Shown here: positions 58,805 through 61,920 of the stretch, piece by piece | How the letters are laid out: every line of letters begins with the position of its first letter | Position numbering within the stretch: position 1 is the first letter of the stretch | DNA from: a phage | Sequence record: PZ452611.1 | Direction: 5' to 3' (one strand) | DNA length: 64,000 bases | Made by a program: the position numbers and the translations under genes | Notes under the pieces: model-generated | What the model saw: the letters and a program-made list of their open reading frames with translations, nothing else | Database searches by the model: none | Told to the model about the DNA's origin: nothing

Positions 58805-59143
58805 ATGGCGGATACAACTAAAAAGCGTCGCCGTAGAGGCAGACCTCTGAAAGAGGAGTCCAACGCCATTCAGCTAGAGAAGAACATCCTTGATATGAAG
58901 GAATCTTTTATAGCGATGGTTCCAGAAGCTCACAAAGTTTTAAGAGAGCTGATGTTGGACCCGAAAACCAAACAAAATATTCGTCAAAGCATTGCAGAGT
59001 ATGTTCTTGATAAGGCAGACCGAATGCAGGAAGAATATGATGAGATGTTTGGTGAAGAGGAAGAGGTGGTAGTGGAAGAGGCTGAAAAACCAGCACCTTT
59101 TATGCCATTTACTACAGAAATACAGCCTGTTAGCAATAGCTAA
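58805..59143 (+). CDS. hypothetical protein with Lys/Arg-rich N-terminus
   Basis: start at MADTTKKRRRRGRP (track 58685). Confidence 0.5.
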   Translation: MADTTKKRRRRGRPLKEESNAIQLEKNILDMKESFIAMVPEAHKVLRELMLDPKTKQNIRQSIAEYVLDKADRMQEEYDEMFGEEEEVVVEEAEKPAPFMPFTTEIQPVSNS

Positions 59144-59239
59144 AATATTTTCTTGACAAACTTTGCTTAACAGTGTAATATTGTAAACATGGTCTCCCAC
59201 CTTTTCTGGCGGCTAAGGTGTAAAAGAAAGCCACCCAGT

Positions 59240-59314
59240 GCCCTGTTAGCTTAGTGGATAAAGCAGCGGCCTTCTAAGCCGTTGACACTGGTTCGAGTCC
59301 AGTACGGGGTGCCA
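59240..59314 (+). tRNA. tRNA-Arg (anticodon TCT)
   Basis: hand-folded cloverleaf: 7 bp acceptor with two G-U pairs, anticodon loop CTTCTAA, T-loop TTCGAGT, CCA encoded. Confidence 0.75.
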
Positions 59315-59318
59315 AATT

Positions 59319-59405
59319 GGGGAGTTATCCCGTAGAGGTAGCGGTGTAGACTGTAAATCTATTGTCATTGCGACTCGGGTGGTTCGACTCCACCACTCCC
59401 CACCA
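59319..59405 (+). tRNA. tRNA-Tyr (anticodon GTA)
   Basis: perfect 7 bp acceptor GGGGAGT/ACTCCCC, loop CTGTAAA, long variable arm, T-loop TTCGACT, CCA. Confidence 0.8.
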
Positions 59406-59519
59406 AATTTATATTTTTAGATGCATAAATAATACAGATAATGGCATTGATATTTATCGTCGTTTATACTAGTCACTAACTGCTCGAAAATCAGTGTCAT
59501 TATCAGTATAATTTATAAA

Positions 59520-59610
59520 GGAGGGTAGGGAGCAATGGTGCTCAAGCGGTCTTGAAAACCGTCCCGTTGAGGATGACTCGATGATGGTTCGATTCCATTA
59601 CTCTCCGCCA
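59520..59610 (+). tRNA. tRNA-Ser (anticodon TGA)
   Basis: acceptor GGAGGGT/ACTCTCC, loop CTTGAAA, long variable arm, T-loop TTCGATT, CCA. Confidence 0.75.
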
Positions 59611-59708
59611 CATTGTTGACCTTGTAATTAAGCGAAAGCCGGAAGCAGAACCGGATTATCAAATGTTACAGTCGTCATCGCCGACTAGCAACATGGTCAA
59701 CATACTGA

Positions 59709-59805
59709 GCTAGGTAAGCCCTTTGGCAAGGGCGAGGATTTTTAATCCTGAAAATAGACGAGGTAGTCGTTGAATACATAGGTGGTTCGATTCCATCACC
59801 TAGCA
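59709..59805 (+). tRNA. aberrant tRNA-like element (possible tRNA-Lys TTT-like with about 30 nt extra arm)
   Basis: perfect acceptor GCTAGGT/ACCTAGC, canonical D-arm and T-arm (GGTGGTTCGATTCCATC), anticodon-like loop TTTTTAA, but 30 nt insertion between anticodon and T arms. Confidence 0.35.
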
Positions 59806-59812
59806 CCTTTTT

Positions 59813-59888
59813 GCTGATGTAGCACAATCGGTAGTGCAATTGATTTGTAATCAATAGGTTGTAGGTTCAAGTCCTGCCATCAGCACCA
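59813..59888 (+). tRNA. tRNA-Thr (anticodon TGT)
   Basis: acceptor GCTGATG/CATCAGC, loop TTTGTAA, T-loop TTCAAGT, CCA. Confidence 0.8.
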
Positions 59889-59889
59889 A

Positions 59890-59964
59890 GGCCCTGTAGC
59901 TGGAAGGTTCAAGCAAGCGACTCATAATCGCCAGACGGTGGTTCAATTCCACCCAGGGCCACCA
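59890..59964 (+). tRNA. tRNA-Met (anticodon CAT; Ile-lysidine type not excluded)
   Basis: acceptor GGCCCTG/CAGGGCC, loop CTCATAA, T-loop TTCAATT, CCA. Confidence 0.75.
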
Positions 59965-59975
59965 AATAGTAAATA

Positions 59976-60052
59976 CTCCGCGTAGCTCAGCTTGGTAGAG
60001 CGCCTGATTTGGGATCAGGAGGTCGAGTGTTCGAATCACTCCGTGGAGACCA
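59976..60052 (+). tRNA. tRNA-Pro (anticodon TGG)
   Basis: C1-G72 acceptor, D-arm GCTCAGCTTGGTAGAGC, loop TTTGGGA, T-loop TTCGAAT, CCA. Confidence 0.8.
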
Positions 60053-60098
60053 CTTTCAGTTATACTTTAAACATATATAAACAAAAGGAACCTTTAAA

Positions 60099-60368
60099 AT
60101 GTATACACTTAAAATTGTAGAGCGTGTAAATCCAACCCATACCGTAGATTTTCGTGACGATTTCAATCCTCTGGCTGTAAATCTTCGAGAGTCATATCAT
60201 GAACTCAGCTGCGATGCAGTGGTGGTCTTTTTTGAAGACAACTCTGAAGGGGCGGTAGCTTGTGTTGTTGATAGTGAGCAGAAGTTTTATATTTACAGAG
60301 ATGTAGATGCATACTTGATGAATGAAAACGCAGTTACTGTTAGAATCATCCACCGAGTGCCTCGATAA
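60099..60368 (+). CDS. hypothetical protein
   Basis: 89 aa, AAAAGGAAC RBS. Confidence 0.45.
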   Translation: MYTLKIVERVNPTHTVDFRDDFNPLAVNLRESYHELSCDAVVVFFEDNSEGAVACVVDSEQKFYIYRDVDAYLMNENAVTVRIIHRVPR

Positions 60369-61156: not shown

Positions 61157-61584
61157 TGTCTAAGATTTACGGACCGTGTTCTGAAAAGCAGAAGATGATC
61201 CTCGAAAACGATGCAGATATCTTGGTAATCGGCGGTGCAGCAGGGTCTGGCAAGTCGTTCCTCTTGCAGTTGATGCCACTTAAAATTATTGATGACCCCC
61301 ACAGCTCTGTGGTTATGTTCCGAAGAACAACCCCACAGTTGGAAGGTGAGGGTGGGCTATGGCCTAAAGCAGTAGCTATTTATAGTGATCTGCCTGAAAA
61401 CATTAAGCCAAAGTTTAGAGAGAAGGATCATAAGTTCATTTTTCCACGGTTTGATCCGAACACTGGCAAGTGGGATAGAAGCAAAAAGGGAGCTGTTGTA
61501 AAATACTGCCACATGGAGTATGTACAAGATAAGCTTAACCATCAGGGGCTTGAGTACACCATGGTTTGCTTCGATGAGGGTTAA
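61156..61584 (+). CDS. terminase large subunit, exon 1 (ATPase N-terminus)
   Basis: Walker A GGAAGSGKS, Walker B-like CFDE; frame closes at TAA inside putative intron. Confidence 0.6.
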   Translation: MSKIYGPCSEKQKMILENDADILVIGGAAGSGKSFLLQLMPLKIIDDPHSSVVMFRRTTPQLEGEGGLWPKAVAIYSDLPENIKPKFREKDHKFIFPRFDPNTGKWDRSKKGAVVKYCHMEYVQDKLNHQGLEYTMVCFDEG

Positions 61585-61587
61585 TTT

Positions 61588-61920
61588 GTAGCTCTCGTAA
61601 AACCTCCCTAATTGCGGGGAAATCTTTATTATTGACACCACCAACCTGTTATGGTAACATAATAGAGGCTTCGAAGAGAGATCGAAGGTATGGTAACAGT
61701 GTGTTAATTTAGATAATCCGCAGCGAAGCATCCGAGAGGATGAACGTTCAACGACTAGTCGAAAGACGTAGAATCAAGCGATTCGAAACGGGAGGGTAAG
61801 CGATTGTTGTCGCTTATAAGATATAGTCTGGTCTGCATGGAGACATGCAGCTGCCTGAGAATGGCGGGGCAAGACTAGCGACCTTGCCTGAACATAAACG
61901 ACACAATTCGAATGGGAGCA
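61588..61920 (+). mobile_element. group-I-like intron 1 (no ORF), boundaries approximate
   Basis: ORF-free insert between terminase frames; shares AATTGCGGGGAAATC and ATAGTCTGGTCTGCATGGAGACATGCAGC blocks with second insert. Confidence 0.5.

Follow-up and report, generated by a model that had tools for sequence, protein, structure and literature searches.

The window analysed here is a phage DNA of 64,000 nucleotides (nt) (sequence record PZ452611.1) that carries, on its plus strand, a compact cluster of transfer RNA (tRNA) genes behind a putative promoter. Bases 59100-60100 of the window are 100% identical, in reverse orientation, to Escherichia phage rV5 (DQ832317 / NC_011041, Vequintavirus). 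The tRNAs were called by ARAGORN, Rfam/Infernal and a custom covariance model. An earlier note on this DNA had listed six tRNA genes with encoded CCA; ARAGORN returned all six with identical coordinates and anticodons, Rfam RF00005 supports five of them, and the CCA is seen in the DNA for every one (N73-CCA). The list turned out to be incomplete, as a seventh tRNA-shaped gene is located at 59709-59807 between the genes for tRNA-Ser and tRNA-Thr, and the size of the cluster is thereby corrected from six genes to seven. What the present analysis adds is this overlooked seventh gene with its family, and the assignment of the tRNA with the CAT anticodon to tRNA-Ile2; the family of the seventh gene is the sole part with real potential for novelty. 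The operon consists of the following parts:

59153..59181, plus strand: putative promoter P(tRNA), TTGACA / 17-nt spacer / TAATAT, 10/12 in a consensus scan
59240..59314, plus strand: tRNA-Arg(UCU), AGA/AGG reader, G73-CCA encoded; ARAGORN, Rfam 67.8 bits, RefSeq trnR
59319..59405, plus strand: tRNA-Tyr(GUA), class II with long variable arm, A73-CCA encoded; ARAGORN, Rfam 29.9 bits, RefSeq trnY
59520..59610, plus strand: tRNA-Ser(UGA), class II, G2-C71, A3-U70, G73-CCA, A at position 8; ARAGORN, RefSeq trnS
59709..59807, plus strand: seventh gene, non-canonical tRNA-shaped RNA of 99 nt; ARAGORN tRNA-???(atcc), Rfam tRNA 35.5 bits, family model R1 100 bits
59813..59888, plus strand: tRNA-Thr(UGU), ACA reader, A73-CCA encoded; ARAGORN, Rfam 76.8 bits, RefSeq trnT
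59890..59964, plus strand: tRNA-Ile2(CAU), predicted lysidine type; ARAGORN Met(cat), Rfam 60.0 bits, RefSeq tRNA-Met (trnM)
59976..60052, plus strand: tRNA-Pro(UGG), A73-CCA encoded; ARAGORN, Rfam 66.4 bits, RefSeq trnP

The gathering score of RF00005 is 29 bits and the cutoff of the tRNA-Sec model RF01852 is 47 bits. tRNA-Tyr lies barely over the former, and tRNA-Ser has no RF00005 match, scores 41.5 bits with the tRNA-Sec model, i.e. under its cutoff, and was called only by ARAGORN. The RefSeq entry for trnS carries the note 'discovered using ARAGON', and the rV5 genome paper likewise found this tRNA by ARAGORN alone (PMC3606486). Taking a score above the RF00005 threshold or a tRNA-finder call as the mark of a canonical tRNA, all six genes qualify; each has an anticodon loop of 7 nt in which position 33 is U and position 37 a purine, as read from the sequence and the Rfam alignments. 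Since four of the genes have E-values of 1e-10 to 1e-17 within 813 nt, the cluster is not due to chance. A transfer-messenger RNA (tmRNA), with a tRNA-like domain and a tag reading frame, was reported by ARAGORN nowhere in the window, and the sole Rfam match of this kind (tmRNA_permuted, 17 bits) is located elsewhere; this identity was thus rejected for the seventh gene. The six-tRNA cluster is an already known feature, since RefSeq NC_011041 annotates trnR, trnY, trnS, trnT, trnM and trnP at these positions and places a sigma-70 promoter 'P(tRNA)' exactly where our consensus match lies, and since these six tRNAs were already described in 2013 in the genome paper, which discusses the usage of AGA, ACA, CCA and TAC (PMC3606486). 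The six tRNAs by themselves therefore offer nothing new and behave like the textbook T4 case. The RefSeq trnR feature (L001:3041-3215; NC_011041 62714-62888) spans 175 nt, overlapping both the promoter and the end of ORF (open reading frame) 74; this looks like an annotation slip, the real tRNA-Arg being the last 75 nt.

The earlier note had left open whether the tRNA with the CAT anticodon is an elongator tRNA-Met, an initiator or a lysidine-type tRNA-Ile. It is a tRNA-Ile2, predicted from its sequence to read AUA after modification of C34 by the host TilS. The positive determinants of TilS are C4-G69 and C5-G68, the pairs of tRNA-Met at these positions acting as negative determinants, and TmcA, which acetylates tRNA-Met, requires C27-G43 (PMC2500205). 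In an alignment to E. coli ileX, metT/metU and metZ, the rV5 gene combines the CAU anticodon with C4-G69 and C5-G68, and has A27.C43 where TmcA would need C27-G43. With ileX it has in common the anticodon, these two pairs, G1-G2-C3-C4-C5, an identical anticodon stem core and loop (GCGA-CUCAUAA-UCGC) and A73-CCA, whereas overall identity is ~80%, the D arm and the T stem differ, and pair 27-43 is A.C in rV5 versus G.U in ileX. Its best matches among 5,413 E. coli genomes are annotated as tRNA-Ile, the 5' strand of its acceptor stem, GGCCCUG, is identical to that of T4 tRNA-Ile, an identical gene in phage Gotham is independently annotated as tRNA-Ile2-CAT, and the CAT tRNA of the relative Av-05 equals ileX with one mismatch.

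Neither of the two Met options stood up. An initiator tRNA-fMet was rejected, as the gene has a paired G1-C72 and the stem AGCGA/UCGCC in place of the C1xA72 mismatch and GGG/CCC of metZ. That the gene is an elongator tRNA-Met giving extra AUG decoding, as RefSeq (trnM) and the genome paper have it, is very improbable. The ARAGORN call of tRNA-Met rests on the CAT anticodon alone, and the genome paper, although it lists the tRNA as Met, calls it 'seemingly unwarranted' (PMC3606486). The elongator genes metT/metU have U4-A69, A5-U68 and a different anticodon stem, whereas the rV5 gene lacks both pairs and has the TilS determinants and A27.C43 instead; its closest E. coli genes are tRNA-Ile genes. 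Furthermore, when the codons of the non-overlapping ORFs of at least 100 amino acids in the window (64 ORFs, 11,826 codons) were counted and compared to 50 kb of E. coli K-12 (14,686 codons), ATG was not enriched in the phage (0.84x) versus 4.5x for ATA. The Ile2 assignment therefore removes the puzzle of the extra 'tRNA-Met' in the genome paper, as an AUA-decoding tRNA-Ile2 resolves it.

In the same codon counts, the codons most enriched in the phage were AGG (7.2x), AGA (6.9x), ATA, ACA (3.3x) and, in fifth place, AAG (2.7x). The proposal that tRNA-Arg(TCT) supplements the codon usage of a phage with a lower guanine-plus-cytosine (GC) content than its host is borne out by the AGG and AGA values, by a GC content of 42.5% in the window versus 52% in the E. 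coli sample, and by the published usage, where AGA accounts for 26% of the Arg codons of rV5 vs 5.1% in the host (PMC3606486). The comparison of codon usage with the host that had been suggested as a check extends this to the set: the Watson-Crick cognate codons of the six tRNAs occupy ranks 2, 3, 4, 14, 17 and 23 of 61 (Mann-Whitney p = 7e-4), and the p value weakens to 0.025 if ATG is swapped in for ATA. These results support that the operon supplies decoders for codons used far more by the phage than by E. coli.

We therefore consider it very likely that the interval is the tRNA operon of rV5, with a promoter and seven tRNA-shaped genes on the plus strand, supplying codons that are overused relative to E. 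coli. The steps of transcription, processing, charging and lysidine formation are inferred from the established biology of E. coli and T4 tRNAs. The sigma-70-type promoter would drive a polycistronic precursor of the seven genes, from which host RNase P and 3' exonucleases would release the individual RNAs. The six CCA-bearing tRNAs would be charged by host synthetases, the CAU tRNA first receiving lysidine at C34 from TilS, so that it would take isoleucine and read AUA instead of AUG, and the seventh RNA would depend on CCA addition by the host. In this way, the operon would provide decoders for AGA/AGG, AUA and ACA strongly, and for UCA, UAC and CCA moderately. Against this picture of the operon, P(tRNA) is only a match to the consensus, the Tyr, Ser and Pro codons are only modestly enriched (1.4-1.8x), and the codon ratios are approximate, coming from crude ORF calls and a single 50-kb sample of E. 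coli.

The closest analogue of the operon is the tRNA cluster of T4 (Arg, Ile, Thr, Ser, Pro, Gly, Leu and Gln plus rnaC and rnaD). Both are compact polycistronic clusters of virulent coliphages with a GC content below that of E. coli, five isoacceptors (Arg, Ile(CAU), Thr, Ser and Pro) are common to the two, Thr adjoins Ile in both, and each rV5 tRNA is nearest to the type of its T4 namesake, at 64-82% identity (Pro 82%). Both also hold extra stable RNA of unassigned function, predicted in the case of rV5. In contrast to T4, rV5 adds Tyr and is without Gly, Leu and Gln, its six genes encode CCA, and its extra RNA is tRNA-shaped and not homologous to rnaC or rnaD: a search of the T4 tRNA region with the family model R1 and filters off yielded no more than 7.6 bits in the stretches of rnaC and rnaD.

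The seventh gene reads, in its 5' part, GCUAGGU-AA-GCCC-UUUGGCAA-GGGC-G-AGGA-UUUUUAA-UCCU-G and, in its 3' part, AAAAUAG-[ACGA-GGUAG-UCGU]-UGAAUACAUA-GGUGG-UUCGAUU-CCAUC-ACCUAGC-A-CC, followed by UUUUU and the tRNA-Thr gene. At minimum energy, it folds into a cloverleaf that carries an additional hairpin (z = -3.7). The 7-bp acceptor stem, the D arm, the T arm with a TPsiC-type loop and the contact between D loop and T loop are all present (RNAalifold, pair counts), and the D arm is able to form 6 bp with a 4-nt loop. In other respects, the RNA departs from a canonical tRNA. The anticodon stem is not a 5-bp stem, as its four Watson-Crick pairs are flanked by a G.G mismatch, where the Rfam alignment needs a deletion; the variable region is of neither class I nor class II, comprising 30 nt with a hairpin between conserved single-stranded flanks (37-39 nt in other family members); A8/U14, both invariant in the family, replace U8/A14; and CCA is not encoded, A73 being part of ACC before UUUUU. 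The anticodon U34-U35-U36 in the loop UUUUUAA together with A73 constitutes the E. coli Lys identity set (UUU anticodon plus A73; PMC9976931), and positions 30-40 (GAUUUUUAAUC) match E. coli lysT (GACUUUUAAUC) at 10/11 bases.

Annotation of the seventh gene differs between records: it is absent in the rV5 RefSeq entry, tRNA-Lys-TTT in Gotham and the BASEL phages, tRNA-OTHER 'Asp|Gly' in Murica and tRNA-Stop(tta) in SophiaRose. Several of the candidate identities could be rejected. The four-base anticodon 'atcc' of ARAGORN needs a stem AUUUU/AAAAU that is broken in Av-05, and is also opposed by the AGGA/UCCU stem, which covaries to AGGUC/GACCU and GGGC/GCCC in relatives. The same covarying stem gives the loop UUUUUAA with the central triplet UUU and not UUA, contrary to the Stop(tta) label. 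A tRNA-Sec was rejected for the gene and its family on account of the 7/5 instead of 8/5 geometry, U73 or A73 instead of G73, and UUU in rV5; the likeness to tRNA-Sec is limited to the long extra arm, the D arm capable of 6 bp with a 4-nt loop, and a UCA anticodon in some family members. The RF01852 scores of the family are 26-40 bits (best 39-40) against the cutoff of 47, similar to those of ordinary Ser and Tyr tRNAs. Among the Rfam families other than tRNA, the seventh gene gave only these sub-threshold tRNA-Sec matches, as ordinary class II tRNAs do.

Homologues of the seventh gene were found, by BLAST and motif scans, in the tRNA clusters of five Vequintavirinae genera (Vequintavirus, Avunavirus, Seunavirus, Mydovirus and Henunavirus), in the N4-like Salmonella phage UTK0002 (Schitoviridae), and in IMG/VR and metagenome contigs of about 137-152 kb. 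A scan of 185,579 bacterial and archaeal genomes for the family signature AATACATAGGNGGTTNGANTCC gave no exact match, on which ground a bacterial origin of the gene was rejected. With the covariance model R1, for which 11 members were used, the scores are 89-125 bits for the family and 34 bits or less for ordinary tRNAs. In an alignment of 29 distinct sequences, standard pairs make up 98.6% of cells, 13/22 pairs are changed on both sides, all four cloverleaf helices covary, and the covariation score is 0.487 vs 0.185 for shuffled alignments (0/500 as high) and at most 0.10 with slid partners. Covariation extends to the elbow, where the D loop UUUGGCAA occurs with the T loop UUCGAUU and UUUGUCAA with UUAGAUU; the tertiary pair is G19:C56 in 21 sequences and U19:A56 in the other 8. 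Hardly any variation is seen across the family in the D loop, in the T arm and in the unpaired blocks GAAAAUA and (G/A)AAUACAUA. Within Vequintavirus, the seventh gene has 0.061 variable sites per base vs 0.24-0.26 in the spacers and 0.011-0.12 in the six tRNAs, and its six variable sites lie in loops or change G.U to G-C or U-A to U.G, so that the structure is kept. Because of the covariation, the elbow swap and the low variability within the genus, the seventh gene is a real, selected, L-shaped RNA and not a chance fold.

These data also bear on the possibility that the rV5 gene is a functionless, decaying remnant whose conserved look stems from young, similar Vequintavirus genomes. The loss of CCA, the variable 3' tail and an extra arm shorter than in other genera would be in keeping with decay, as would the sister lineage Av-05, where U35A destroys the Lys identity (loop UUUAUAA) and is found with U73 or C73 and no CCA. 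Escherichia phage V18 has moreover deleted the gene without obvious harm. Yet the density of variable sites is four times below that of the adjacent spacers, every change keeps the structure, and compensatory changes separate rV5 from Av-05 in both the acceptor stem and the extra arm. We therefore regard a remnant as quite improbable. With the V18 deletion (L011:951-1047), tRNA-Tyr and tRNA-Ser are lost, as is the seventh gene except for its 3' 47 nt, and no tRNA-Pro is annotated in the V18 record; the deletion shows that these genes are dispensable for at least one Vequintavirus.

The anticodon loop and the discriminator base covary by lineage. UUU is invariably accompanied by A73, as in 5/5 distinct Vequintavirus sequences (UUUUUAA with A73), and NCC or UCA by U73-CCA. 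In the forms of Mydovirus and Seunavirus, a 5-bp stem carries the 6-nt loop CAUCCA, CUUCCA, CCUCCA or CAGCCA; in Henunavirus, the N4-like phage and several metagenomic lineages, a 4-bp stem carries the loop C/UAUCAAA, with UCA as triplet and A at position 33. Erwinia phage records label this UCA form tRNA-sup(tca). All 22 distinct sequences of the NCC and UCA forms (22/22) have C2-G71, U73 and an encoded CCA, and 21/22 have G1-C72. The bacterial Gly identity set consists of G1-C72, C2-G71, U73, C35 and C36, and the combination of U73 and G71 is reported to be confined to tRNA-Gly and to be what the TacT toxin recognises (PMC9976931). An alignment with phage tRNA-Gly was uninformative beyond the common G1-C72, C2-G71, U73-CCA end. 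Phages with the NCC or UCA forms also carry a canonical tRNA-Gly(UCC) or tRNA-Lys(UUU). Annotation across the family is inconsistent (Lys, Stop, OTHER, "hypothetical protein" or none), and no description of the family was found in the literature on Vequintavirinae tRNA-like or suppressor tRNAs, anticodon nucleases and phage non-canonical tRNAs.

Three further observations concern relatives of the seventh gene and their neighbours. The member in Salmonella phage vB_SenP_UTK0002 (L018:1503-1610) is close to the Erwinia Henunavirus form and lies among the clustered tRNA genes of an N4-like podovirus, which implies horizontal transfer between unrelated phage families infecting Enterobacterales. 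In Seunavirus and Mydovirus, a second tRNA-like gene lies between tRNA-Thr and the family member (L008:1419-1494, L016:924-1000, L021:911-985, L023:911-985), with U1-A72, G73-CCA and anticodon loops of 6-8 nt; for near-identical copies, ARAGORN returns Ile(gat), ???(agat), ???(ga) or Ser(cga). Genes of this tRNA-like kind, non-decoding or re-targeted, thus seem to be more general in these clusters. Metagenomic relatives of the UCA form (L040:7862-7934, L053:2791-2865) also encode a tRNA with a CUA anticodon, labelled 'Pyl' by ARAGORN, which would be a putative amber-suppressor-like tRNA.

For the rV5 gene itself, the most likely reading, which to us comes close to an even call, is that of a tRNA-Lys(UUU) which is aberrant in structure and was recruited from a tRNA-shaped scaffold specific to phages. 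We base it on the Lys identity set, the host-like anticodon arm, the purifying selection within the genus, the absence of any other tRNA-Lys from the rV5 cluster and the enrichment of AAG. A number of features speak against decoding by such a tRNA: the anticodon stem has four Watson-Crick pairs only, the variable region exceeds that of any class II tRNA and is flanked by conserved unpaired strands, the gene does not encode CCA, and the rV5/Av-05 clade shows drift in the bases beyond position 72 (ACCU, ACAU, UACA, CACA). In addition, the 6-nt loop on a 5-bp stem of most relatives should not decode and yet the structure is under selection, phage V18 has lost most of the gene, and tRNA-Lys is not rare in E. 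coli.

Several of these features would be accounted for if the seventh gene were a non-decoding tRNA mimic, released by tRNA processing and acting through its core and acceptor end, with an anticodon loop that is irrelevant or weakly constrained. For instance, it might act as ligand or decoy towards a host protein or toxin that binds tRNAs, or carry aminoacyl groups for a non-ribosomal purpose. The loops vary by lineage in sequence and length (UUUUUAA, UUUAUAA, C/UAUCAAA and the 6-nt CAUCCA, CUUCCA, CCUCCA, CAGCCA), conservation is highest in the core (D loop, T arm) and in the unpaired blocks on either side of the extra arm, and the loops of most members should not decode and still belong to RNAs under structural selection. 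Phages with the NCC and UCA forms already own canonical tRNAs for Gly(UCC) or Lys(UUU), the C2-G71 and U73-CCA of the main clade reproduce the U73 plus G71 pattern recognised by TacT (PMC9976931), and a second tRNA-like gene with loops of 6-8 nt adjoins the member in Seunavirus and Mydovirus. On the other hand, anticodon and discriminator switch jointly and in agreement with synthetase identity sets (UUU with A73 for Lys, NCC with U73 for Gly), which is expected only if charging, and therefore probably decoding, matters. The anticodon arm of rV5 also copies that of the host tRNA-Lys at 10/11 positions, and no partner protein or target of a mimic is known. Taken together, we consider a mimic possible but somewhat doubtful.

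For the family as a whole, we tentatively propose a phage-only, undescribed group of tRNA-shaped RNAs, and give this proposal a good though less than even prospect. A common core, made up of A8/U14, a D arm capable of the tRNA-Sec style, single-stranded GAAAAUA and AAUACAUA around a variable hairpin, and a canonical elbow, would serve as a scaffold on which anticodon and discriminator have been switched together several times, giving Gly-like (NCC with U73 and G71), UCA with U73 and Lys-like (UUU with A73) forms. The scaffold would be either a platform for re-targeting to other amino-acid or codon identities, e.g. to make up for host tRNAs that defence nucleases attack, or a mimic or decoy that is charged yet does not decode. 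Allo-tRNAs, which are long-armed and non-canonical too, likewise combine a constant body with varying anticodons. Many phages of E. coli, Klebsiella, Salmonella, Cronobacter and Erwinia that are candidates for therapy carry a family member in their tRNA cluster, and a re-targetable scaffold or a decoy, if true, would bear on how phages answer tRNA-cleaving immunity.

The link to immunity raises a different view of the operon, namely that it mainly replaces host tRNAs cut by tRNA-cleaving defence systems and thus keeps translation going, rather than balancing codon usage. Targets of such systems overlap with the gene content of rV5: AriB of PARIS cleaves E. coli tRNA-Lys(UUU) and tRNA-Thr(UGU), and tRNA variants of phage T5 rescue infection (PMC12409363); Retron-Eco7 is reported to degrade tRNA-Tyr (PMC12673091); and a bacterial Schlafen protein cleaves tRNA-Lys(UUU), tRNA-Met(CAU) and tRNA-Ile(CAU) (PMC13056530). 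Where AriB cuts, at U36AAUC|A41, the seventh gene has UAAUC|C, and A41C is one of two substitutions that confer resistance in T5 (PMC12409363), a coincidence that is suggestive only. The spread of the scaffold to an N4-like phage also suggests a host-directed function across phage backgrounds. However, the tRNA-Thr of rV5 keeps the UAAUCA site of the cleavable host tRNA, the anticodons of the operon closely fit the most enriched codons, so that codon supply explains them without a role in defence, and no defence assay of rV5 tRNAs was found in the literature. A mainly anti-defence operon is thus unlikely in our view; the two roles are compatible and not mutually exclusive.

The PARIS-resistant variant of T5 tRNA-Lys(UUU) is among the known RNAs closest to the seventh gene as a candidate tRNA-Lys. 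Both are phage RNAs with UUU and an anticodon stem unlike that of the host at the AriB site, and C41 of rV5 corresponds to T5 'Mut2' (PMC12409363). In contrast, the T5 tRNA is a canonical class I tRNA and also carries U39A, whereas the rV5 gene keeps U39 and has a 30-nt variable region and four Watson-Crick stem pairs.

The two longer spacers of the cluster, although they form stable folds, were not counted among the parts of the operon because they are its least conserved stretches in the genus, with 0.24 (spacer 1) and 0.26 (spacer 2) variable sites per base; conserved small RNAs were rejected for both on these values. Spacer 1, between tRNA-Tyr and tRNA-Ser (59406-59519, plus strand), forms a long imperfect hairpin of -26.2 kcal/mol (z = -4.45, 0/200 shuffles as stable), and a promoter-like TCGAAA-17-TATAAT lies within it at 59484-59512, closely upstream of tRNA-Ser. 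Spacer 2, between tRNA-Ser and the seventh gene (59611-59708, plus strand), has a multi-branch fold with a 9-bp closing stem UUGUUGACC/GGUCAACAU (z = -2.6) and gave no Rfam or tRNA-model match; it may be a degraded tRNA or just spacer.

Outside the operon, a group I catalytic intron is located at 61572-61850 of the window on the plus strand, as a full-length match to Rfam RF00028 with 84.9 bits. It is known and annotated: at this position, RefSeq joins the coding sequence of the terminase large subunit from three pieces, with the ORF of an HNH endonuclease inside.

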